Assembly: GCA_951406725.2 (NCBI GenBank)
Contig: OX597822.1
Coordinates: 118,916,001-118,980,000 of the forward strand
DNA from: Octopus vulgaris
Taxonomy: Eukaryota
Length of the DNA stretch: 64,000 bases
Direction of reading: 5' to 3'
In this document: positions 923 to 56,206 of the stretch, one piece after another
Layout: every line of letters begins with the position of its first letter
How positions within the stretch are numbered: position 1 is the stretch's first letter
Program-made: the position numbers and the translations under genes
The notes under the pieces: generated by a model
What the model was told of the DNA's origin: nothing
Database searches by the model: none
The model's input: only the letters and a program-made list of their open reading frames with translations

Positions 923-1735
923 TCACGTCCTGGTTGCCTCGGGATGCCGCTCAGTTTTTCGCAACAGCGGCTCAAGAGCCACTACATACAAAAGCGGGGA
1001 GAGCGGACATCCCTGGCGGACCGAGCGTTTGACTTTGAACGGCTTAGAAAGAAAGCCGTTCACCCGAACTACCGAGTCGACGTTGTCATACATTTCGATG
1101 ATCCACCTGAGGAAGCCAAGACCCAGGCCGAACTGAGCCAGAACGGACACCAGGTAGTGATGGTCGACCCTATCGAAAGCTTTTGACTGGTCTAAATGGA
1201 CCACTACCCCTCCCTTGCCGGGATCATTATTTATTCCCTCTAACGTGTATCTAATAAGATGGAGATTATCCTGAATGGCTCTGCCTGGTACGGCGCACGT
1301 TTGCGCTTTCCCAATCAGTCCATTCGCGACACGCACCAATCTGTTCGATAACACTTTGGCCAAAATCTTCAGCTCTGCGTTAAACAGAGTGATGGGCCTG
1401 AAATTATCTATTACATCCCCCTTGCTCTGGTCCTTCCTGATTAGCGTCACCACTCCCCGGCGCACAGATCTGGGAATAAACCCATTCTGCTGCCAGTTTG
1501 CGTAGACGTCCGTCAGTAAGTCCCCGAACAAGTCCGGCATACTTTTATAAAGCTCGTAGGGTAGACCATCCAGTCCCGGCGCCTTACCCGCACCGCAGTC
1601 CGCCATGGCCTCTATTACCTCCCCAGGTGTGATCGGCTCCTCACTACACTTCTCATCCTGCCCCGAGAGGCGCGGCAGCCCGTCGAGGAGGTCCGTAAGG
1701 CTCCTCCCCCTATCCGGTCCGCCGCTCCCCCCCAA
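923..1735 (-). pseudogene. Non-LTR reverse transcriptase (Tx1/L1), N-terminal two-thirds; the YADD motif follows in another frame near 890-910
   Basis: GKAPGLDGLPYELY, NFRPITLFN, LDQSKAFDRVDH, RQGCPLSPLLY. Confidence 0.93.
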
Positions 1736-2226
1736 AAAGCTGGGCGAAGTGGTCCTGAAAAGCTTGACACATCTCTTCGGGCTCGTCTGTCAACTTACCC
1801 TGTTGGTTCGCCAGAGATCGAATTGTAGCATCGTTGCCACGTTGGGCTTCCACTACTCGGGCCCATCCTGCAGCCTTGATTCCTTCGCTCCCCATTGTAC
1901 GTTGTCTAGCCCTGATAATGCAACCCATGTGTTTGGCTTCGAGGTGCTGGTTAAGAACCAGTCTCTTGACCTTCACCTGGTCTGCATTGCCAGTTCGCAT
2001 TGCTTCCTCTAAGTCCTTAACTAGTGTAGTTACCTTTCTAGCCTCTCTAGCTACAAGATTAGTACTATACCTAATGGACTCATATTTTATGGCTCGCTTA
2101 AGGGCATACCACCATTTGTTGTTACCAATGGAGCCGGTCAAGGCCCTCTGGATTATTAACCTAATCCTGTCCCTGTGCTCCTTAATCGCCAAAATGGACG
2201 TATTAAGTTTCCAGTAACCAGGACCT

Positions 2227-2940
2227 CTATTTATCTACGTCTAGCCTACAGGTGACCATCTTGTGGTCACTGTAGCTGACTATATGGAGTTGTGGACTCT
2301 TAACTAGGTTCTTATCTACCTTCCTAATTAATATCCTCTCTATGTATGACTTTAACGATCCGTCGCTATTTGACCACGTCCACAGTGGAGCGCCCGGATG
2401 TTCCAGTCTATATGGGTCTACCAGCTCAAAACGTCTTAGTAGATCCAGGAAGCAAGCATTTCCTTTTCTGTCTGTTCGCGAGCCTTCACAGTCTACCCGC
2501 ACATCGCAGATTGTGTTGAAGTCACCTAACATTACTACTGGGCACGATGTACTCAGAAACTTCTCCAGGTTCCGATAATAATCACTTTTCCCCTTACCGG
2601 GGGGAGCGTAAACCGCAACCAGCCTGATTGTCTTACGGCTACTGAACGTCAATTCAACGACGACCAGCCTACCTTCCGGATCTGTAAAAATCAACTTTTT
2701 CTCAGAGACCCGGTTCTTTTTCACCAGGACCAACACCCCGCTTCCGCTGCACGACGGGTTCGGAGAGATAATACTCTCGTAACCGTCAAACAGCGGGAGC
2801 AGATCTCTTGGCCCCTTTAACCGGGTTTCTGTGGCAACAACATCTAAATCCCGTGACCTGATGTCATTTAGGAGGCGCCCTTGCTTCCAGCTCGTCATCA
2901 GGCCACGCACATTCAAACACCCTACACAAATGTGAGACAT
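2227..2940 (-). pseudogene. L1-type apurinic endonuclease domain
   Basis: Motifs LNVRGL, ETR, GRLV, VAVYAP, LGDFN, WTW and SDHK. Confidence 0.92.
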
Positions 2941-3342
2941 TACTTACCTTATCAGTTTTTTCCTGCTCTGGTGGTCGTGGGGGGTGGGGGAAGTCCGCTT
3001 TAAATAATGACTCGTGTAAGTTGAGTCGCGGGCCCTTAATGTCCCCCGGGTACTCCTCTCTTATTATATTATAGTTCATTCTGTCAATCTTGAAAACCTC
3101 GACATTCTTGGGGAGTACCCTGTGTGTGTTGATGTTGTGTGCCGTTGGGACATTGTCCAGATATTTAGTTAGTCTGTCGTTTGCATTGTTTATAGCAATG
3201 TATACCGTCTCGAATTCTATTATTTTTTCCTCTTTTTGGGGGCTTTGTGGTGGTGATGGGGAGGAGATCGGGGAGTATGATATGGGGGAACCTGGGGAGG
3301 GGTTTGGGAGGGAAGGGAGTTGCTCGGGACTGGGGAGTGGGG

Positions 3343-4576
3343 TTAGCTTGTGTTGGGCTGGGGGGTCTTCTCTTTTTTCTCTTTTTGTGGGGGTGGGGTA
3401 GATTTCCCCCCCTGTATGTTGGATTTCTTTTTGTGTGTGTCTGGGTTGGGTGGGTTAGTATCAATGTTTTTCCTCTTTGGGTTTTTCCTTGGCCTCACCG
3501 GTGTGAAGGCATTTTCGTCCTCCTTTGTCTTTTCTTCCTCCATCTTCTTCTCTTCTTCTGTCGTTTTTTCTTCTTCCACTTTTTTCCGGGTAGAGTACTC
3601 CATACGAATGTGTCCCTTTTCGCCACATTCGTAGCATCGAGGCTTTCGCCCTTCCACTACCTTTCCTCGTCGAACTGGATGTTCTCTGGGATTTCTTCCA
3701 TCGTTTCTGGGGTTGCCTGTACTATTATATGCAGAGTTTGTCCTCTCCAATTTTCTCTTTTAATCTTCGTGATATTCACCACCCTTATCTTCTTCTCCAG
3801 CCCCATCATTAATGCTGGGAGCAACCACTTCACCTCAATTTCTGGTGGAATATCTTCGACCCTTATTTTGGCAGTTCTCCTCCCCAAATAGGAGGGTAAT
3901 AAAATTACCTCGCTTGTTTTAATTGGGGTCAAAGAATGTTTCTTTGCCATTTCTTCATCTCTAAACTATATCTCGATAGTGGCGTACTTTTGCCCCCAAT
4001 TTACATAATCTATGTCGGTCCATACCGACTGCAGACACTTCTCTGCTTGGTCCTTTGATATTTTCTCGATTTTTTTCTCTTTTGTTAAATAAGACTTGTA
4101 AATTACGACTCTTTTTTGCGTTTCTTCTCTTATTATTTGTGGGAGGGCTGCTTTAACCTTGTTCCCCTCCTTTGTAAACATTTTCTTGTAGTTCTCATAA
4201 TCTGCCTCCTCCATCTTGATCTCTTCCATTTTTCTCCCTGCAGCAGCTGCGAAATTGTATGTCTTCTCTTTTCCTTTAGAAGACGAACCTTCAATTCCTT
4301 TGGTTGCTCCATCAGAAGGTGAACTTTCGGCTACTTTACCTGTTTTTATACTTTTTTCCGCTTCAGCAACATTAGCTGTTTTTCCAGCAGGCGAACCTTC
4401 GTCGGCTTCAGCTTTTCCGCAGGCGAAACTTCGGCATCTTTAGTTTTTTCAACAGGCGAGCCTTCGACAATTTTCAATTTGGTAGACGAATCTATAACAT
4501 TTTCTTTTGAGGGTAAACCTCCGTTGGACATTTTTTCATCGAACATTTTCTCAGCTGAAAAAATGTTTTTGTTCAT
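3343..4576 (-). pseudogene. LINE ORF1 (gag-like) with a degenerate CCHC zinc knuckle, split by stops and frameshifts
   Basis: RCYECGEKGHIRMEY = CX2CX4HX4(C>Y); Lys/Glu-rich N-terminus; lies directly upstream of the APE ORF. Confidence 0.75.
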
Positions 4577-5388: not shown

Positions 5389-5452
5389 CGCAGACAGGAA
5401 CTGATACAAATTGATCGTATATATATGTATGTATATATGTAAGTGTATGTGT

Positions 5453-8187
5453 TTTGGTATTGGCAACATGAATGACAATGGCCAGAGACTACTTGAATTT
5501 TGCACATACCATAACCTGTGCATCACTAACACATTCTTTGCCAACAAGACATTCCACAAGGCATCTTGGAGACATCCAAGATCTCACCACTGGCATCAGC
5601 TGGATCTCATCATTGCACAAAGATCCTTTCTGAATTCTGTTCAACTGACTCGTAGTTACCACAGCGCGGATTGTGACACAGATCATTCACTAATAAGAAG
5701 CAGGGTGAGGATTCTGCATAAAAAGTCCATCACTCCGAGAAAATGGCCCGATTACGCATTAACACTGCCAGAACCTCCGACACTACACTGCGACAATGTT
5801 TTGCTGTTTCTATCAAAGTTGCCCTCAGTAGCTGTCCAACCACCTCTGCTGAAAGTAGGTGAAATTATATCAGGGAAGCTTTGTATACCACATCAATAGA
5901 TCCTTTCAGCATGAGAGAAAGGCAAAACCCAGATTTTGTTCAGTGCTGGGCTCTCAGTGCTGGAAACAGTTATCGAAACAAAGCGTGCAGCTCTGATGTA
6001 ATACAAGAGTGATTCTTCTATAAAGTCACCCGAAGAACTCAGAAAGGCAAAAAATAAAACCCAACTGACTGCCAGACGCTGTGCAAATAGGTATTGGCAG
6101 GAAATCTATCAGAGTATCCAGTCAGCTGCTGACAGTGGTGACACCCGTGGGATGTATGCCGGTTTGAAGAAGGCCCTCGGTCCATCCGCAACCAAGTCAG
6201 CCCCTTTGAAATCAACTACTGGGGATCTCATCAAGTACCAAAGCAAGCAAATGGATACATGGGTGGAGTACTACCAGGATCTCTACTCACGAGATACCAC
6301 GGTAGCTGAGACTGCAATCGAGGGTGTCAAGATCTTGCCAGTCATGTGTGAACTTGACAGTCTGCCATCTATAGCAGAGCTCACCAAGGCTATTGACTCC
6401 CTAGTAAGTAACAAGGCTCCGGGAAAAGACGGCACCCCCTTAGAGATAATCAAAACCGGCAAAAACATCATCCTGCTTCGGCACATTCATGAGCTTCTGT
6501 GTCAGTGCTGGGAAGAGGGTACATTCCCTCAGGATATGTGGGATGCTAACATCATTACGCTTTACAAAAACAAAGGTGACCGTGGTGATTGTAACAATTA
6601 CCGTGGAATATCTCTTCTAAGCACTGCTGGAAAGGCCTCTGCTCGCATTATCCCGTCCAGGCTGCAACTGCTTGCTTCTCGAATTTATCCAGAATCGCAG
6701 TGTGGTTTTAGAAGAAGCAGATCAACTATCGATATGATACTCTCCATACGCCAACTTCAGGAGAAGTCCAGAGAGCAGAGAATGCCATTATATATGGCCT
6801 TCATTGATCTGACAAAGGCCTTTGACTTGGTAAGTAGAAAAGGCCTCTTCATCCTGCTCCAAAAAATCGGATGTCCACCAAAGCTGCTGAGGATCAGCAC
6901 ATCTTTCCATGATGATATGCAAGGCACCATACAGCACAATGGTTCAACATCAGCCGCCTTCCAAATAACAAATGGTGTAAAGCAAGGTTGTGTCCTTGCT
7001 CCTACATTATTTGGCATCTTCTTCTCGCTGCTGCTGTCACATGCCTTTGTGACATCAGATGATGGAGTGTTTCTGCAAAGTAGAAGTGATGGGAAACTGT
7101 TCAATCTCTCGCGTCTGCGTGCCAAGACCAAAATCAGAAGCGTCCTGGTCAAGGAGATGCTATTTGCTGATGATGCCGCTCTGGTATCACACACAGAAGT
7201 AGCCCTACAAAGGCTCATCAACTGTTTTGAGCAAGCATGTGGCAACTATAGCTTATTTATCAGCCTCAAGAAGACCAACATCATGGGTCAGGCTACATTA
7301 ACCATCCCAAACATACATATTGGAGACCACAGACTACAGGAGGTGGAGAAGTTTACCTATCTTGGCTCTACCGTCACCTACAACCTATCCCTTGATACTG
7401 AGCTCAATATACGTATTGGCAAGGCAGCTGCTGTGATGGCCCAACTCTCCAAACGGGCATGGGACAACAATAAGCTGACCAAGACCACAAAAATGAAGAT
7501 TTACCAGGCATGTGTACTTAGCACTCTACTGTATGGAAGTGAGACTTGGACGCCATACACACGCCATACGACGCCATACGTCGCCTAAATATCTTTCACC
7601 TGCGCCGCCCCCGGAAATTCCTTCGCATCAAATGGCAGAATCATATCCCCAACAAAGATGTCCTCAAGCAAGCAGGAATACCAAGCATGTTTGCACTCCT
7701 CACACAAAGACGTATGAGATGGCTTGGACATGTTAGCCGCATGGAAGATGGCAGAATCCCCAAGGACATACTCAACGGAGAGCTTGCTAGGGACACTAGG
7801 TCTGTGGGAAGACCGTTCTTACGATACAAGGATGTTTGCAAAAGGGACATGAATGCCTGCAACATCAATATTACCAACTGGGAAGCAGTTGCCAGCAACC
7901 GTGGAGATTGGCGACGTACCGTAAAAGAGGGAACACAAAGGAGTGACATAGAGGGAGGGGAGAAATGGAAAGACAAGAAAAGACGTCAACAAGAAAGTAT
8001 GACATTACAACCAGCCAGGCAAAGTCTTCGCTACAATTGCGGCACCTGCCAGGGGGAGTGTTTCTCCAGGATAGGACTACACAGCCACAGCAGGAGATGT
8101 ATTAGGACATGAAATGTAAAAGCCGGACTAGATTATTTTATGCGCAACTCCATTGTCTCCTGAGACAAAAAGGATGCTAACAACAAT
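5453..8187 (+). mobile_element. RTE-clade (BovB-like) LINE, 5'-truncated and disrupted
   Basis: APE C-half (NDNGQRLLEFC, SWRHPRSHHWHQLD, CDTDH); RT 6152-7588 (NYRGISLLS, FIDLTKAFD, GVKQGCVLAP, LFADD, LLYGSETW); frameshifted C-terminus with C2H2-like CGTC..HSHSRRC; 3' UTR ending ggatgctaacaacaat. Confidence 0.95.
6152..7588 (+). pseudogene. RTE reverse transcriptase ORF (478 aa open stretch)
   Basis: All core RT motifs present; frameshift near 7560-7590 into ORF 7546-8112. Confidence 0.93.
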
Positions 8188-21620: not shown

Positions 21621-22411
21621 GTGGAAAGTATGTATCGTTAGAATAGTATTCTGGCTTTATCCCAGTTATTCTGGTGCCGAAGGATCTGGAAGAAGCGCTC
21701 AGGTTTCCAATGTGTATTACAATAAAAGATGGAAGACCTCAATCCTTATGGCATGATTTGTCTTGGCAAAAAAGTCCTGATCAGTGAATTAACAGTACTA
21801 CTATGATATGGGCGCATAAAATGAAGGACGTAGAATACGATAGACTTAAGGAATCACGTGGTGGGGGTACAAGTATGGCAGTTCTACTTGAAGAGGTGAT
21901 TTGTAATTAAACTCTCCCCCCTCTCCCCCCTCTCTATCTCCTATTCCCACACTTTATCAATTCTGGTGTGTCCCAAGTTTCGGTATGCCTTACACATTCT
22001 TCTGTGTACATCAACGTCACATCAAACAATGTCTGCTGCTACAGAGTTGACTCACCCTTTATTCTTCCCTAACCGTCCACATACAAGCAGCATCTACATG
22101 CAGTCTAGACATCTCATACCAAACCTGCATTGTGTCCCTAAACAGGGACCTCGAAAATAATTTTTCTAACTGGGTCATATCAAAATCTATATTTCAACTA
22201 TACAAAGACACAACCAGTGACCATGTCAAGGAAACGCTCTTGAATCCAGCGACCTTTTACCATAAACGTTGCTCAATTCAAACTTTCAGTGTTTCTACAG
22301 ATTTTGTATCTCTCGCGGACATCTTGCAACCACAACATAGAAAATAGTGCCTGTGAAACGTGGCCGTTTATTTTGGAGACAGAAAATGCTTCAGCTGTCA
22401 ACAGTTGCTTA

Positions 22412-22813
22412 TCTTTATATATAAAAGAGAGGTTGTGTGCTGTCTGTCTCCTACGATTTAGATTCCTAACTACTCCCACATTTTGCGGTGCAGTTTAACC
22501 AAAACCGGGTATCTTATAGTCGTGATTCATATCGAGCCCTTCTGGGTATTAGCGCGCGTCTACGATGAGTCTACGATGAGTCTACGATTTAAAAACAAAT
22601 TTACCATCAATTTTTCCCATTTTTAATGCATTTTTGGCATATATAAGGGAAGTAACTCTCTAAAAATTTATTAAATCTCAGAACGTAAAAAGCTACAGTA
22701 ACACCCCCCTTGTGGTTAGCCATATTGAGATGGCTATTATACTTTACATCTCTAAAAATGCCTATATAGTTATTTCCCTTACAAACCCGAGCAACGCCGG
22801 GCGCTACTGCTAG
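22412..22813 (+). mobile_element. Non-autonomous Helitron
   Basis: A|TC start, subterminal hairpin cccgagcaacgccggg, CTAG|T end, no TSD; second copy at 28578-28972. Confidence 0.9.
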
Positions 22814-22839
22814 TTCTCTATAATATAATACCCACAATG

Positions 22840-23330
22840 AAATACTTCTTCTACATCTGGGACGCTACACATGCGGCAAAGAAGCCTATGCATCATCCGA
22901 CTAATTGCCATTAAAGTGATCACCAACACACTCCAGTCTCCGTCTCACGGGCGCGCCGCTGTCTCCGCGCCGCTGTCTCCGCGCCGCTGTCTCCGCGCCG
23001 CTGTCTCCGCGCCGCTGTCTCCGCGCCGCTGTCTCCGCGCCGCTGTCTCCGCGCCGCTGTCTCCGCGCCGCTGTCTCCGCGCCGCTGTCTCCGCGCCGCT
23101 GTCTCCGCGCCGCTGTCTCCGCGCCGCTGTCTCCGCGCCGCTGTCTCCGCGCCGCTGTCTCCGCGCCGCTGTCTCCGCGCTCCACTCTTCCTCTTGCTAC
23201 TTATACTGGTCTCTGTTCTTCAATGATGGTTTCTCGCACTCATCAGATTAGATTCGCATTCACCAGCATTTCCATTCCTTCCTCTCTAAATGACATCCCT
23301 CCGGAATTCCTTTCCAGCCCGTGATTTTTT
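22840..23330 (+). mobile_element. Old CR1/Jockey-type LINE 3' remnant containing a minisatellite
   Basis: IIRLI..KVITNTLQSPSH-RRAVS-AL resembles the LINE C-terminal LQPLSHRR.VA.LSLFY. Confidence 0.45.
22953..23176 (+). repeat. Perfect 14-bp minisatellite (gcgccgctgtctcc) x16
   Basis: 224 bp = 16 identical units. Confidence 0.97.
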
Positions 23331-28386: not shown

Positions 28387-29040
28387 TTTATTATTAAAGC
28401 TGCAAAATCATCACAAAAATATCACAACTTTAGATTACACTTTTGAGTTTCAGTCACAAATGTCCGACGAACGGGAATGCGAACCTCTGAGTAGCAGTTT
28501 TTTTGTGATATTTTTGTGATGTTTTTGCAGCTTTAATAATAAAGTATATTACTCTGCCACAGACTTTTATACATTTACTAGCAGTATCGCCCGGCGTTGC
28601 TCGGGTTTGTAAGGGAAATAATTATATAAGCATTTTTAGAGATGTAAAGTATAATAGCCATCTCAATATGGCTAACCACAAAGGGGGAGGGGTGTTACTG
28701 TAGCTTTTTACGTTCTGAGATTTAATAATAAATTTTAGAAAGTTACTTCCCTTATATATGTCAAAAATGGATTAAAAATGGGAAAAATTGATGGTAAATT
28801 TTTTTTAAAATCGTAGACTCATCGTAGACGCGCGCTAATACCCAGACGGTCTCGATATGAATCACGACTATAAGATACCCGGTTTTGGTTAAACTGCACC
28901 GCAAAATGTGGGAGTAGTTAGGAATCTAAATCGTAGGAGACAGACACACAACCTCACTTTTATATATAAAGATTTCCTCTATTTACATAATATTGAGGTC
29001 TCTTTCTTTCTTTTGTTATCTTACTGTTTTTACCAATATA
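28381..29040. mobile_element. Palindromic Penelope-type element H3 (arms 28381-28427 and 28503-28549) with a 3' tail interrupted by a Helitron
   Basis: Inverted arms; central CCGACGA hammerhead-like motif; tail 28973-29040 nearly identical to 39144-39210. Confidence 0.65.
28578..28972 (-). mobile_element. Non-autonomous Helitron, same family as 22412-22813
   Basis: TC and CTAG termini on the minus strand; inserted at A|T (acattta|tttcctc). Confidence 0.9.
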
Positions 29041-29071
29041 CATATATATATATATATAAATATATATATAT

Positions 29072-29395
29072 AGTTACAGAGATGTACTTGCATAGCAAGT
29101 GACTTGATCTGAGATCGTGTGCTGGAACGAAAACAGTTGCAGCGTTGAAGGTGTTTATAAGCCATTTAATAAACACACAAAAACCGTTAGATTCACTTCA
29201 ACATTTAAATTTAATTTGTCAAAATATTTTCGTCGCTTTGAGACCGCGACCTGTTAGCACGATATTTTTGTCAGTGAACAGGTCGCGGTCTGAAAGCGAC
29301 AAAAATATTTTGGCAAATTAAATTTAAATGTTGAAGTGAATGTAACGGTTTTTGTGTGTTTCTTAAATGGCTTACAAACACCTTCCACGCTGCAA
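29072..29395. mobile_element. Palindromic element H1 (119-bp arms 29137-29255 and 29277-29395) with variant hammerheads; partial copy at 41018-41157
   Basis: Near-perfect inverted repeat flanked by (TA)n. Confidence 0.8.
29267..29317 (+). ncRNA. Minimal type-I hammerhead-like ribozyme with G3-C8 core (GUGAACA)
   Basis: Stem I tttgtca/tggcaaa, core GTGAACA, stem II GTCGC/GCGAC, palindromic stem III AATATT; G12>A in this arm, but GAAA is intact in the opposite arm. Confidence 0.6.
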
Positions 29396-29413
29396 TATAT
29401 ATATACACACATA

Positions 29414-29448
<35 letters not shown>

Positions 29449-34971: not shown

Positions 34972-35890
34972 TTGGGTGTCCCAAAATTAAGGCAACCAAC
35001 TTTTTTCAATTTTGCCAAAGTAAAATGTTGTTATATTTCGGACCCGAGCGTTGCAATATAATGGTAAAGGAAACACAATTATGACACTACCATATTTATT
35101 CGATATGACCACCAATGTTTCGAATCACAGCCATAAGTCTAGATGCGAATGCTTCACACACGGAACGCAGCTGTTCTTGCGAAATCGAAGCCCATTCCTG
35201 CTGCAGTTTTGCCTTCAGAGAGTCGAGCGAAGCATGAGAAGTGCTCGAGTCATTCGTCTCCAAAATGGACAAAGAGAAAAATCCAGCGGGTTGAGATCGG
35301 GGCTTCTTGAGGTCCATACATCCTTGCCTGTGAATGACGGAATGTTTTTTCTGAATCCAGTGTTGTGTCTGTTTGGAACTGTGGGATGGTGCCAAGTCCT
35401 GCTGGAGGCTCCACGGTGCTCCTTGAAAGTGCTCATTCTTCCATGGAATCAGTTCAGCTTCCAGAATGTCGCTAATGTATCGCTGGGTGTTAATTGTTAC
35501 AGCCGAGAACACAAAGACGAAGAGAGACCTTCCAGTAGCTGTCACAGCCACCCAAACCATAACTGACTGGATTTTGACGTCGGTTTACGAGTCTACCCTC
35601 GACGGATCTCGATACACTCCAAAGTCGCTCATTCTGGTGGTTTACTGTTTGTTCGATGTCGAATTTCTTTTCATCAGTAAACACCAGGCTGGCAGCGTGC
35701 CATCTACAATCTGACACAGAATAAGACGACTTCTCTCCAGCCTCATGGCCTTATAAAGCTGCGCGAGCTTATGACAGCAGATCATCTTGCAGAGGCGTAT
35801 ATTGAGATCCTCGTTCAGTGCTTGATACATCGATGTTCTGCTTATTTTTGCCGAGGCAGCCAGTTTTCTGGCGGGGCGATGAGTCATCGA
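34972..35890 (-). mobile_element. Tc1/mariner DD37D (maT) transposase remnant, frameshifted
   Basis: FTDEKKF, MVW, QQDLAPSH, SPDLNPLD; 37 residues between the 2nd and 3rd Asp after rejoining frames. Confidence 0.88.
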
Positions 35891-36299
35891 TGCTTTGTCA
35901 GTATTGTGCTTGAAGTGTAGGTGTGCGGTTGTGCACTAAGTTCACATATTCCATTCATCTTCATAATGCCAAGAAACTGTAGAAACATCGCAAACAGCTT
36001 TTGCTATATATGGAAAATATGTAAAATATTGAGACAATCGACGAAAAATATCTGTAATAAAACTCTAATTGATAAATGTAAATTTTTATTAAAACAAAAC
36101 ATGTAGGTGAAGTAAATTTCGTGGTGTGAAGAATCAACACAACGTGTAGATGAAGTGAAACACAACACAACGTGCGGTTGTCATGGTAACAAGCTGTTCA
36201 TGCCTTGCTGTCTGTTGATTGGCTAAAATCAACCAAATTTCTCCAATTTTAATTCCAAATAACATCAGATTCTTTAATGTACGAGATAAAGTAATTGGT

Positions 36300-37480
36300 T
36301 GATCGTAATCAAAATTCAGAACTGCATCGATACACCAAAATTAAAAGGAATCGGGACAAAATTAAAAGGGGTTCATTTTGCGAATGAAACAAACTAGATC
36401 CGTATCCCTGTTGGGTGAAGTAGCGAGCCATGAGTTGGGACAGTGTCTCGAAGTCATGGTCGTCGCTACAGAGCCGGCGGAGACGGAGGTACTGAGAGTA
36501 AGGGGTGGACAGTTTGGTGTGGGTAGGATGTAAGGAGAAGTTAAAATTGGAACGTGAGTGCGTGCGTTTGTAGTGAGTGGAGGAGGTAAGAGAGGAGTGG
36601 TGGATAGTGACAGAAATGTCGAAGTTGATGGAGGTGTGTTGGGGACAGAACAAGAGAAGTCGAGGGTGGAGTAGGACAGGACAAAAGAGAGGAAGCAGTC
36701 AAGATGTTCGCGGGAGAGAGTGTGGTTGCGCCGATGCGGTTGTCAGTGTATAGACCACAGAGCTCAGTGAACTGTGAGAATATTTAGACCTCAACACAGC
36801 CGATGAACAGGTTCGCATAGTTACGACCTATTCTCTTTCCTATGGCCACTCCCGAGACCTGGTAATAAAATTCACTCACGAACGAGAAGCAATTAAGAGA
36901 GGGGACGGGTTCACCCAAACAGAGGAAGATAGAGGTATCAAGCTGAGGAAGAAGACGAGGATAGGAGCAAATGTTTTAAAGCAAGGAAACTTTCATTGTG
37001 AAGGATAACGATTTGATATTAGGGGTGAACAGGAATCTGAAGGGAGCGAGAGGAAAGGAGAAATAATTGAAAAGATGAAGAGCATGGTTAGTGCGATGAA
37101 TGTGTGAGGGGAGAGAAGCCACAAGGAGAGCGAGGACAAGGTCGAGATATTTGGAGATGAGTTCGATGGGGCAGCCGCTGGTGGAAACAATTGGGCGGAG
37201 TCTTGAAAGGAAGTAAATGGTGGGGGTGCGTGAGGTACGACAATGAGGTTGGAGACGGTGGAGAGTAGAAGAGAGCAGGAAATATGATCGTGAATAATAG
37301 AAGAAACAATTTGTTGATAGTGTGACGTGGGGTTGGAGGGTAGAGAGCGATGAAGGAGGTGACTAGGAGTTGGCGGAGCGCCTCAGACTTGCAGTAGTCT
37401 ACACACCACACAAACACAGCTCCACCTTTGTTAGCCGGTTCAATGAATGATGTCTTGACGGCATCGGAAGCAGAGCAGCG
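36300..37480 (-). mobile_element. Penelope-like element RT remnant
   Basis: PANKGGAVFVW..KSEALRQL; YYQVSGVAIG..YANLFIG; HYK.THS..HP.HTK.S.PYSQYLRLRRLCS. Confidence 0.85.
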
Positions 37481-37907
37481 CAGAGAGTTCGGCTCGGGAG
37501 ATGATGATGATGATCATCACCATGGTCGTGATGATTATGATCGATGATGATGAAGTACGAAGACGAACACAGTGATTGTCAAGGTAATAATAGTTCTGTG
37601 CATTTCGATTGTTCTGGAATGATTATTAAGTTTTGATTTCAGCCAATGGAAATAAATAGCAACCGCAACTGAAGCGTGAAAATGGCAGACTCAGCAGACA
37701 TTTTGTTGTCGCTTGAATATAAATACAATGCAGTGATTTAAGGTTCATTGCAGATCGACGAGAACGACACAAGAGGTTTATGTTATTGACTTTTTAGAGT
37801 CTAGGCTTGCTTTTGTTAGGCGCAGGCATGATGGTGTGACTACGAAAGTCTGTTCGAAACCACGGTTGAAGTTCGATCACTCTTTGATATATATATATAT
37901 ATATAAT

Positions 37908-39204
37908 AATAATATGTTACATTTACTCAATAGTCAAGATAAAACTCTGAGTTTCAGATGCCGAAGTGGAAATCCACAACACCATCTTTTCGGTTATCTG
38001 GCCATCTGAAAAACGTTATGAAAAAACACCGTTATATAAAGGGAATTTACTGTATTATAATTCTGCTCGCGAACCCACGTGCGTACTTATACGTCACTAT
38101 GAAAACGTACACATCTTCACTCGCATTTTTCGCCAAATATATACGCATATATATATACAAACTCATACACACACACATGCGTACCGTAAAAGTTCATACA
38201 TACGTCTATATACGCACAAGCACAAGAAAAACCATGGTCAAAGGTAACAGAAAAAAACAAGGAAGGATACAAAGCATAAAAACCACGTTCATATACGGAC
38301 ATGCCCCTATGCACTCATACACACACAAGCCCATATATGTACATACCCGCACATATTTATATACGCATACATACACACGCATATACAAAAAATGAATATA
38401 CATATATCCCCCCCGCCCCAAAAAATTGGAAAAATACTAAGTAAAAACGTCTCTATATATACATGTGCATTGTTATGGCCGCACACGCACACATCTAAAA
38501 CTGCCCACTCATACATATTCACACACATTTAAAAATGAATCTATATACACGTCTATATAGGCACAGGAAAAAATGCAGGATAGAAGAGTACAGAAAAAAT
38601 TATTATGTGTGAAAATATAAAAATATATGAAATAATAAAAGGTATAATGAGATAAAAAAACTTTTGGGGACATAATATAGAAAGCAAGTTCTATCTGTTT
38701 TCTTTGGGGACCAAAAACGTAACATAAATTTAGTCACATGTGGGCATGATCCGAAAAGTTCTGTCCTTGAGTTTAGACATGTAGTAGGGTCTAAGCTGCT
38801 TTAACCATGGTTTTTCTTGTGCTTGTGCGTATATAGACGTATGTATGAACTTTTACAGTACGCATGTGTGTGTGTATGAGTTTGTATATATATATGCGTA
38901 TATATTTGGCGAAAAATGCGAGTGAAGATGTGTACGTTTTCATAGTGACGTATAAGTACGCACGTGGGTTCGCGAGCAGAATTATAATACAGTAAATTCC
39001 CTTTATATAACGGTGTTTTTTCATAACGTTTTTCAGATGGTCAGATAACCGAAAAGATGGTGTTGTGGATTTCCACTTCGGCATCTGAAACTCAGAGTTT
39101 TATCTTGACTATCGAGTAATGTAACATATTATTTTATAGATAAATTTCCTCTATTTACATAATATTGAGGTCTCTTTCTTTCTTTTGTTATTTTACCGTT
39201 TTTA

Positions 39205-39210
<6 letters not shown>
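37908..39210. mobile_element. Inverted-repeat element H4 (arms 37908-38243 and 38799-39133) with outward-facing hammerhead-like motifs and a 3' tail
   Basis: ~335-bp nearly identical inverted arms, flanked by (TA)n. Confidence 0.8.
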
Positions 39211-39251
<41 letters not shown>

Positions 39252-39808: not shown

Positions 39809-41169
39809 GTAAAATATATGCAATTGAAAAATACAAAATATGATTTAAATATAAATAATATATACATAAAAGTAAAAATATACATATAAGAAAAATATAT
39901 ATACATATTTACAGATATTTTGTTGGATGGCCGTTGACTGTCCTGGAGTTTCTCTGCCCTTTGACGGGTGTTATTTTTCATCTCACAGGGTGTCCAAACA
40001 ACACCCTCCTCACTAAGCAAGCTTGGTGGGGTTTCCAGTTTAGTTACCGACGACCCGACCATGCGACAGGTTGTACTGGATTACATGTTACCAGTACCAC
40101 TCAAGCTACCTGACATATTTTTAGATTGCATATCTTTTACTTTTTTATATTTATATATATATTATTTATATTCAATTCTTATTTGCATTCCCAAATCACA
40201 TATCGTACTTTTTCCTATGTATGAATGAGCTACTCCGCGTCGGTCACCAGAGTGATATTTGATCACTTTAGAGAGTGTTTGAGTGTCAGTTTGGTGTCTG
40301 GAATGAGATAGCTTACCTCATGGGCAGATAGAAGCTCTTTAATCATGGTTGGTAATCTACCTTGGAGAAGGAAATCTCCGAAATAAAACCGGAGGCCTTG
40401 GAAGTTCCTGGTTTTGTCAATTTTCATGTCACATCGGCGAAAGTCTTCTTGGGCCAATAGGTGGAGGTAGTGCAGTGCAAGCTACACCCACTGAAAATTA
40501 TTCATCTGCACAGGTATTTCCTGTACACCAAATCTTAGAAAATCATTGAATTGGTTGGTTGGCAGAAACCTAAAAATGCACTTGTAACTAACTCTAAAAT
40601 GTCAAACAGATTCAGTAAATGTCAAAAAAGACTTGGGAACGTCAGGGGAACAAGTTTGGCTTTCATCGAAACCCAGAGTCTCCCCTAGGCCATCATCACA
40701 CTTGCCCTCTACCAGCCCTCTATAGTACGCCGAGGCGGTACCCCCTCCGCCGGCATTGCTCGTTCGGGAGAGAACCACAAGCGCCCATCGACACTCTGCT
40801 TGCCAAGCTCCCAGTATTCCAATTCACCAAAAGAAGTGAACCTGGGAAATAGCGCATCAACGAACTACCTCACTTACTCAGACTGCTGCCATTTATATGT
40901 AATGGCCCAGTCCATTCTCACCAATGGGCGTCGTACTCTCGTACAACATCTCCCCTTTTCGTGTTCCAAAGGAATAAAGAATATATATATATATATATAT
41001 ATAAATATATATATATATTACGGAGATGTACTCGCATAGCAAGTAATTTGATCTGAGATCGTGTGCTGAAACGAAAACAATTGCAGCGTGGGAGGTGTTT
41101 ATAAGCCATTTAAGAAACACACAAAAGCCGTTCGATTCACTCCAACATTTAAGTTTAGAGAGAGAGAGT

Positions 41170-54277: not shown

Positions 54278-54346
<69 letters not shown>

Positions 54347-54444
54347 TAATAATAAAATGACAACAAAAGAAGGAGCCCTCGAATATAAAAATAGAGGAAT
54401 AAATCACCTTCCGGACGACGTTATATATATATATATATATATAT

Positions 54445-54684
54445 AGAGGAGGAAAAGAAGGAAGGATTTCTTGCAAAAGTCTGAGGGAGGGGAGGAAGGT
54501 TTCCCTGGAAAAGCCTGAGGAGGGGTGAGTGGGAGTTCCTGGAAAATTTCGAGGAGGAGGGAGGGGAGCACGAACTTTCTGTGAACAGGAGAAAGGGGAG
54601 GAGGGGGTAAGGACTTCCTGGAAAAGTCCGAGGAGGGTGCTGTTAGAATGACAGGTTACAGGCAGAGAGAGGGGATACCATAGG
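54445..54684. repeat. 240-bp inverted duplicate of 53932-54171
   Basis: About 3 mismatches seen by eye. Confidence 0.95.
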
Positions 54685-56206
54685 GGTAATATGCCCTATC
54701 CATAAGGGAGGTAGTAGAGCAGATGCTAAAAATTATAGGCCTATCTCTCTGACCTCACACATCAGCAAAGTCATGGAACGAATAGTCCGTAAGAAACTAA
54801 TCATGTTCCTTGAAGAAAATGACTTACTGTCTGACACCCAGCATGGATTTCAACCAGGTAGAGGCTGCCTAACACAGCTCCTGCAACACTATGACTGGGT
54901 GTTGAAACAGCTACTAAATGGCTCAAATGTGGATGTAATATATCTCGACTTTGCAAAAGCCTTTGATAAAGTCGACCATGGTATGATCTGTCACAAACTG
55001 CGTGGTCTCGGCATAGGCGGGAAACTTGGAGAGTGGCTGCACAACTTCCTAAAAGACAGAAAATAGGCAGTTGTGAGCAATGGAGCCACCTCCAAGGAAA
55101 CGCAAATAACAAGCGGTGTCCCACAAAGCACTGTCTTGGGGCCACTGATGTTCATAGTGGCCCTTTCAGACATGCCTTCAGTTGCTACGATGACCACCCT
55201 TGCTAGCTATGCAGATGACACAAAAGTCTCCCACGCAATACAAAACCCTGAAAATATTGCGCATCTGCAACATGAGCTGGACACAATATACAGGTGGGCT
55301 GAGGACAACAACATGCAGTTTAATGCAGGTAAGTTCCAGGCCCTGCGCTACTGGCACACAAAGGTAAATGACGTGAAGACTGGATACACTGGCCCAGGAA
55401 GAATTGCAATCCCTGAGTCAAAATCAGTGCGTGACCTGGGCATTGACATGAGCAATGATGCATCTTTCCAAATGCATATTGCTAATCTGGTGATAAAATG
55501 CAGACGGCTAGCTGGATGGATTCTCCGAACTTTCAGAACAAGAGAGAAGGAGACACTGATGGTCCTATGGAAAACATTCGTCCTTAGCCGCTTGGACTAC
55601 TGCTCCCAACTTTGGTCACCACACAATATAAAACAAACAGCAGAACTCGAAGCAACTCAGAGAAGCTACACAAAGAAAATCGTCTCAATGCAAAATGTCA
55701 GCTACTGGGAAAGACTGAAGGTATTAAACCTCTTCTCCCTGGAGCGGAGGCGGGAGAGATATGCAGTGATATACATCTGGAAAATCCTGGAGGGTCTTGT
55801 CCCAAACTTTGGCATTCAAAGTTACTCCAACCGCAGAACGGGCGCCGCTGCGTGGTGCCAAGGATTCCAACATCACCATCAAAATACAGGTCCAGATACT
55901 GCAACAGCTTGGGTTTCAGAGGACCACAGCTCTTTAACATCCTCCCTAAATGCCCGAGAGACTTACATGGTGTGGATGTGGGTTTGTTTAAAACTAAACT
56001 GGATCTCTTCTTGTTGGGAGTCCCAGATGAACCTACCTCACGACAGGAGACACGGATGCGGGCAGCAGCATCGAACTCCCTTGTTGATCAAGTGCCACGT
56101 ATCAGAGGTGGATTCACAAACTAGTGTAGCTCATTCAGCGGTGGTGCCCCAGCATGGCCGCGGCCTTCGGGCTAAAACATTTTTAAGGATTTTAAGGATT
56201 TAAGGA
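54685..56206 (+). mobile_element. CR1-clade LINE, 5'-truncated, with one stop and one frameshift
   Basis: PIHKGG..NYRPISLTS, YLDFAKAFDKVDH, SGVPQSTVLGP, YADDTK, LDYCSQLWSP; tail (ttttaagga)n. Confidence 0.94.

Follow-up and report, generated by a model that had tools for sequence, protein, structure and literature searches.

Minimal type I hammerhead ribozymes (min-HHR) occur in the pseudo-LTRs (pLTRs) of metazoan Penelope-like elements (PLEs), and opposite-strand, closely spaced pairs of them have already been reported (Cervera and de la Peña, 2014; PMC4209133). The insertions of PLEs have a described form of their own, with an inverted 5'-truncated copy, a one-sided tail of 30-40 bp and a bias toward (TA)n (Craig 2021, PMC8557442; Arkhipova 2013, PMC3846280). 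In vitro, the Penelope-like protein PAc cuts both strands and two reverse transcription (RT) start sites delimit the tail (Frangieh 2024, PMC11167929); insertion in vitro does not require the hammerhead (PMC11167929). A third group to be compared are the non-LTR retrozymes, short non-coding units with a type I hammerhead that are considered derivatives of the pLTRs of PLEs (10.64898/2026.07.22.740005; see also PMC7229834).

We have analyzed a hairpin locus of Octopus vulgaris within a stretch of 64,000 nucleotides (the window, meaning the whole stretch). Like the insertions of EN+ PLEs (Penelope/Poseidon, Neptune, Naiad, PAc), it has a head-to-head inverted 5'-truncated copy with a tail at one end, an AT-rich or (TA)n target and no clear target duplication. 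Unlike them, the whole insert is just 323 bp and non-coding, and the tail measures 64 nt instead of the 30-40 bp described (PMC8557442, PMC3846280). Since the described Penelope-like footprint consists of arms placed head to head, a tail on one side and insertion into (TA)n, we read the locus as likely Penelope-type, a membership assigned from architecture alone. Our main reading, to which we give a probability of roughly 0.75, is that of a head-to-head pair of 5'-truncated copies, likely inserted by a PLE into (TA)n and now decaying, in which the lesions of the ribozyme motif are likely unrelated accidents and the locus is predicted to be catalytically dead.

The motif resembles the PLE min-HHR (PMC4209133) in its type I topology, the extra nucleotide between A9 and G10.1, the G10.1-C11.1 pair and the palindrome that replaces stem III, whose 6 nt match the length found in D. 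virilis and A. vaga(1), and its family resembles them in having dispersed truncated copies and opposite-strand pairs. The differences from the min-HHR of the same paper are the G at position 3, present in none of the 56 rows of its Fig. S3 (53 with C3 and 3 with U3), the length of stem I (7 bp here, mostly 2-5 there), the identity of the extra nucleotide (G, where the consensus is H, although a G is found in Nasonia) and the lack of an ORF linked to the motif. No RT or GIY-YIG ORF was found beside the family copies in the window. With non-LTR retrozymes the family shares a short non-coding unit with a type I hammerhead and copies that seem to start near stem I; it departs from them in that no tandem array of units with the hammerhead was found in the window and in that the hammerhead is minimal, not canonical.

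Architecture of the hairpin and its hammerhead motif

The original prediction had described arms of 119 bp with a 21-bp spacer, and both were confirmed (Table 1), with 112 of 119 positions identical between the arms. It had also placed the hairpin inside (TA)n. This is accurate for the right arm, which abuts the tract, and not for the left one: the minus copy continues for 64 nt past the arm to a left end at 29073, so that only the right arm is in direct contact with (TA)n. The arm junction is blunt (between 29255 and 29256), and loose ends of family contigs before 29264/29266 and behind 29255 match the spacer sequence. A relative lacking the ribozyme had been proposed at 41 kb, and the solo copy found there is indeed ~91% alike and without the motif. 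The long 3' end is common to the hairpin and this copy, interrupted (TA) tract included, and the inner part of the tract, (TA)6 plus a TTTA break on the strand of the element, was probably templated by the element. A fold-back artifact of the assembly is an unlikely source of the hairpin judging from the sequences, since each arm has its own changes relative to the family; among the contigs listed, none covers the entire locus.

Table 1. Coordinates, in the window, of the features of the hairpin locus and of the solo copy.
Feature	Position	Strand	Remark
(TA)n tract at the long 3' end	29040..29072	.	same interrupted tract after the 41018 copy
One-sided 3' extension (tail) of the minus copy, 64 nt	29073..29136	-	in the 41018 copy; missing from the plus arm
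Minus arm, with its 5' side cut off at core position A6 and G12 retained	29137..29255	-	
3' part of the hammerhead motif, A6 to stem I 3' strand, without stem I 5' strand	29215..29255	-	
Spacer (21 nt), the 5' stretch by which the plus copy exceeds the paired region; holds upstream sequence of the family, the 5' strand of stem I and G3-U4-G5	29256..29276	+	
Type I minimal hammerhead motif, G3-C8 core, palindromic AAUAUU for stem III, G12>A at 29301	29267..29317	+	
Perfect 11-bp local inverted repeat (29262-29272 / 29298-29308), A12 included	29262..29308	+	
Plus arm (119 nt), stops at the second (tail-less) 3' end of the family, then (TA)n	29277..29395	+	
Independent 5'-truncated solo copy with tail	41018..41157	-	starts 8 nt downstream of the predicted cut site

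On the plus strand, the stem I 5' strand (29267-29273) is followed by the core GUGAACA (29274-29280, with G3 and C8), one extra G, a 5-bp stem II (29282-29286 with 29296-29300) closed by G10.1-C11.1, an A at position 12 (29301), the palindrome AAUAUU (29304-29309), U17 (29310) and the stem I 3' strand (29311-29317). For the family motif, the cut is predicted between 29310 and 29311. This bears out the G3-C8 core with G12>A that had been proposed for the plus arm, in the form of a type I motif, and the 7-bp stem I and the palindromic AATATT can be confirmed in its letters. The 3-8 Watson-Crick pair is present in the family motif, but as G3-C8 instead of the canonical C3-G8. The plus arm had been considered intact except for G12>A; core and A12 stand, with one further difference in loop II (29292) and another in stem I, where 29313 forms a U-G wobble. 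The minus arm had been described as having lost the 5' core, which is true of G3-U4-G5 and the stem I 5' strand but not of A6-A7-C8-A9, which it retains. Neither strand of the hairpin has a complete core together with G12, the plus strand having A12 and the minus strand being without G3-G5 and the stem I 5' strand. As a separate observation, the stretch 29266-29274, at the stem I 5' strand, has a pyrimidine run and a CAG and so resembles a 3' splice site; the D. virilis element has an intron that ends where helix I begins on its 5' side (PMC4209133).

The motif was the sole match of a relaxed hammerhead scan on both window strands. It was also found by a strict descriptor (stem I of at least 7, stem II of at least 5, palindromic stem III, G or A at 12) that had 0 matches in 200 dinucleotide shuffles of the window, both strands, while the relaxed descriptor had 76 in the same shuffled windows. 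No Rfam hammerhead model was among the 43 matches at E<=10 for 29200-29340, which were chance hairpin-shaped matches below gathering scores, and in the window-wide Rfam scan every one of the 150 matches listed (from a total of 225) was below gathering, mainly microsatellite hairpins. Long inverted arms and a TA target would also fit a MITE or a fold-back DNA transposon whose terminal inverted repeats measure 119 bp and whose hammerhead shape would be incidental, and the window holds a second element with inverted arms at 37.9-39.2 kb. We consider this origin highly improbable, given the absence of the strict motif from the shuffles, the one-sided tail, the 5'-truncated solo copy and the variable junctions; fixed terminal inverted repeats are not found in all copies.

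The second element (37902-39217) has the same build and belongs to another family. Its arms of ~340 bp (37902-38243 and 38799-39138) are 98% alike and are separated by a spacer of 555 bp. A tail of ~77 nt is seen only on the right, and (TA)n at both ends. The element is younger than the hairpin, and the relaxed scan found no hammerhead motif in it. A tail fragment of this second family (28958-29045, 94% alike to 39132-39230) lies directly left of the (TA)n of the hairpin, and a more diverged tail fragment is located at 54321-54399. The hairpin was probably inserted into (TA)n that belonged to a previous insertion. The window is otherwise rich in microsatellites and broken LINE ORFs. On the minus strand, 36300-37510 contains frameshifted ORF pieces with words resembling those of Penelope-like RTs (EPANKGG and YSQYLRLRRLCS), which we take to be Neptune-like; this stretch has no similarity to the hairpin, and four frames of it (36.3-37.5 kb) gave no Pfam family. 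Broken LINE-type elements are seen at 923-4439 (-), 5405-8112 (+) and 54647-56203 (+), with RVT_1 confirmed by Pfam for 926-1789 and 6002-7585. Inverted copies (92%, ~400 bp) of another dispersed repeat are found at 28577-28973 and 22411-22814, a perfect 14-bp tandem array of ~17 units at 22950-23190 and, at 35096-35900 (-), what we presume by eye to be a fragment of a Mariner/Tc1-like transposase.

The repeat family and its two 3' ends

For the family beyond the window, we have used contigs from four of the 24 public sequencing runs listed (X1, X3, X5 and X12, with 40.6, 36.2, 28.3 and 1.39 million records read, respectively), aligned to 28975-29420 at 82% likeness. The contigs matched were 19,611 (X1), 12,041 (X3), 9,416 (X5) and 844 (X12), which indicates a very abundant family, bearing in mind that summed contig depth is not copy number. 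X12 may be an RNA run but is no evidence as to expression. A G is present at 29301 (position 12) in 87, 84, 81 and 77% of the plus-arm contig depth (X1, X3, X5 and X12), which is probably a floor because G-bearing contigs fit the minus arm too; the mirror site on the minus arm (29231) has no variant among the 40 of 46 rows listed. Contigs continuing past 29255 with G5-U4-G3 and the stem I strand numbered 125, 99, 77 and 6 (same order of runs), so that the complete G3-C8 motif exists on single molecules. Together, these data support the claim that merging both arms gives the complete family motif, with G12 in 77-87% of depth and the full G3 core past the junction.

The remaining positions are consistent with a hammerhead as well. 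The family majority has U4 G5 A6, A9, G12 A13 A14, A15.1-U16.1 and H17, along with stems I and II, G10.1-C11.1 and the palindrome at stem III. No variant of at least 4% falls at 29274-29280 among the 40 of 46 rows listed. C8 is not invariant, as 42 (X1) and 22 (X3) distinct contigs, counts that are not frequencies, depart at its mirror, with loose ends behind 29252. The stem I letter 29313 is polymorphic with its pairing preserved (U-A or U-G, the G making up at most 11-29% of summed depth), and no two-sided compensatory change in the motif stems was seen among the family contigs. Upstream of the motif, the agreement of the loose ends drops to about 0.5 within ~15-25 nt of stem I, and many family copies seem to begin at this distance upstream of it; the family may consist of a short unit that is non-autonomous. 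Among the 24 of 918 loose-end rows listed, ends did not accumulate at the site where the cut is predicted. Separately, a search of metagenome contigs with an 18-nt core pattern returned 31 loci, which we rejected as chance matches, their alignment to the element covering at most 37 nt and the rest of the motif missing.

Head-to-head copies are common in the family. Twelve of the 15 joints listed (148 in total), which may be spurious inasmuch as the contigs were placed at 82% likeness, join the two arms, left to right, at breakpoints other than that of our hairpin. Several of them contain family upstream letters missing at our hairpin, and by both features these joints are other loci. The sense arm spans the whole motif region in 7 of the 12, and the other three joints are one strand change and two internal skips. 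A direct tandem pLTR arrangement is absent at the hairpin, and no go-back joint was found among the 15 listed. A number of contigs exit the family at 29137, the exact mirror of the plus-arm end at 29395, into mixed AT-rich flanks (35 in X1 and 39 in X5; this end is not among the rows listed for X3 and X12, 24 of 918 loose-end rows). These sequences mark 29137/29395, the short end, as another 3' end that is used across the family.

The formation of the locus may then be pictured in four steps. In the family RNA there is a minimal type I hammerhead motif with a G3-C8 core, and its cleavage would probably be slow, dimeric and protein-assisted, as inferred from other PLEs. Both strands of the (TA)n target would be nicked, each of them priming reverse transcription in the manner of the anole element PAc, one at the long 3' end (29073) and the other 64 nt inside (29395), both ends being observed. 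The two cDNAs would stop at unrelated places, the minus one at A6, and would be joined bluntly, leaving the junction that is seen. Finally, the arms have separately gathered the point changes observed, including G12>A, perhaps by CpG decay or by local fold-back correction.

The same type of element could instead have generated the inversion by fold-back self-priming on a single template. For head-to-head inversions with palindromic junctions, an antisense-template model has been proposed in rotifer Penelope elements (PMC3846280), and the two arms of our hairpin agree at 29183, 29189 and 29209, sites that are polymorphic in the family. The junction, however, is blunt and without a palindrome, and the arm reaching further 5' is the one that carries the short 3' end. 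The arms also have different letters at 29313/29219, each of which is frequent among family copies, a hint of two templates that is weak because a fresh A>G change would look identical. We therefore regard self-priming as rather improbable and retain priming at both nicks in our main reading.

Decay and predicted folding of the locus

Private departures from the family majority are found in the plus arm at 29292, 29301, 29342 and probably 29375, and in the minus copy at 29146 and 29170, plus 29136 in the tail. The 7 differences in 119 nt amount to a Jukes-Cantor distance of 0.061 between the arms, and they would be about 8.5 million years old (3-17) if a rate applicable to octopus of 0.0036 per million years (PMC13282606) applies and if they started identical. 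The change G12>A is of the CpG>CpA type. CpG transitions account for 13 of the 29 minor-variant rows tallied, including all listed CpG sites of stem II, in a tally that omits 11 of the 40 listed rows (sites where the window letter is in the minority, their second alleles, 29313, 29343 and 29349). In addition, A12 falls within the perfect 11-bp inverted repeat with 29262-29272, where the hairpin does not have the most frequent upstream sequence of the family. Such a perfect local inverted repeat is the expected trace of a fold-back (quasi-palindrome) correction, and A12 and the upstream change are possibly the product of this correction or a subfamily trait.

The original prediction called the lesions complementary, and the data do not support any meaning of this complementarity. 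Truncation at a variable junction is the normal scar of this family (the 12 of 15 joints listed, 148 in total), and for an arm that is 3-5% diverged a change somewhere in the 11 core positions has a computed chance of 28-43%. Coincidence is the likely origin of the complementary lesions, and the locus is an ordinary fossil of a known insertion pattern.

Folding predictions agree with an inactive locus. The read-through RNA folds at -193.7 kcal/mol when free and at -141.1 with stems I and II forced, the probability of stem II being ~1e-21. Alone, the plus arm misfolds, with a pair probability of 0.99 for the 11-bp repeat vs 0.003 for stem II, and on the minus strand 29215-29255 forms stem II alone (z 0.09). 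None of the folds computed predicted a transcript of the locus that would form the ribozyme. By contrast, the sequence merged from two slices of the window retains the hammerhead stems, with probabilities of 0.74 and 0.68. G12 is the general base of the hammerhead and its loss strongly lowers the rate (PMC6155905, PMC8495972). With the motif buried in a long hairpin and the plus arm misfolded by A12, the locus is predicted, and likely, to be catalytically dead.

Two functional interpretations have to be weighed against these folds. The parts missing from each arm complement one another on paper, and the arms jointly contain every element of the motif, so a split ribozyme could be imagined in which the plus RNA supplies the 5' core and the minus RNA supplies G12 and the cut site, provided that both strands are transcribed. 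In the predictions, however, the whole sense and antisense RNAs pair along their entire length (-584 kcal/mol) and the two motif halves come together in the misfolded register; moreover, the breakpoint is one among many in the family and the divergence of both arms looks neutral. Complementation in trans between the arms is, on these models, very unlikely, and a functional split ribozyme is hardly credible. The insertion might alternatively have been kept as a source of hairpin RNA, and hence of small RNAs silencing the family, as the read-through RNA is predicted to form a near-perfect stem of 119 bp. Such hairpins, however, arise in large numbers as a by-product of insertion, and the arms are 6% diverged without any sign of maintained matching, which makes retention for this purpose quite improbable.

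Meaning of the G3-C8 core

For the family motif, in distinction to this locus, we put self-cleavage at about even odds. The RNA would be cut after U17 solely as an AAUAUU-paired dimer, slowly and perhaps helped by protein, as can be argued from other systems (PMC4209133, PMC11167929, reviewed in PMC6765202). The strand-swapped double-hammerhead dimer scores -25.4 vs -30.6 kcal/mol for the best co-fold, so the nearest-neighbor model gives no support to an active dimer, but as a model without tertiary terms its dimer energies are not decisive. An over-paired 10-bp palindrome (-6.2) outscores the 6-bp one (-0.2), and this over-pairing could, according to the model, trap A13, A14 and U17.

The swapped 3-8 pair is the one found in engineered C3G/G8C double mutants of the hammerhead, for which a partial rescue of cleavage has been described (PMC11167929, PMC8495972, PMC3884650); in the octopus family it is the natural majority state, at high copy. 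Section 8 of Perreault 2011 reports a natural U3-A8 hammerhead and not G3-C8, and no natural G3-C8 hammerhead was found in the portions of the literature searched, PMC10085705 included; the largest survey of variants (Lünse 2017) may list it. The family-wide G3-C8 core would be a modest natural variant, apparently new to the literature searched, with the same proviso for Lünse 2017. That a swapped pair is the majority state of a widely spread family suggests that the 3-8 pair has been kept under selection.

More speculatively, and with the odds against it, a high-copy animal family of Penelope type may have fixed a G3-C8 core that still cuts, as a dimer or with protein, and that would be invisible to CUGANGA searches. 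The (TA)n-targeting Naiads, called hammerhead-less, had been screened for core motifs by means of a cuganga string. If the idea is true, G3-C8 cores may be common, and some "hammerhead-less" Penelope-like clades may carry them unnoticed. Since the standard descriptors miss G3-C8, hammerheads may have been undercounted in Penelope-like elements. Apart from the core, the abundance of head-to-head copies that have two 3' ends provides a genome-scale test of priming at both nicks against fold-back self-priming.
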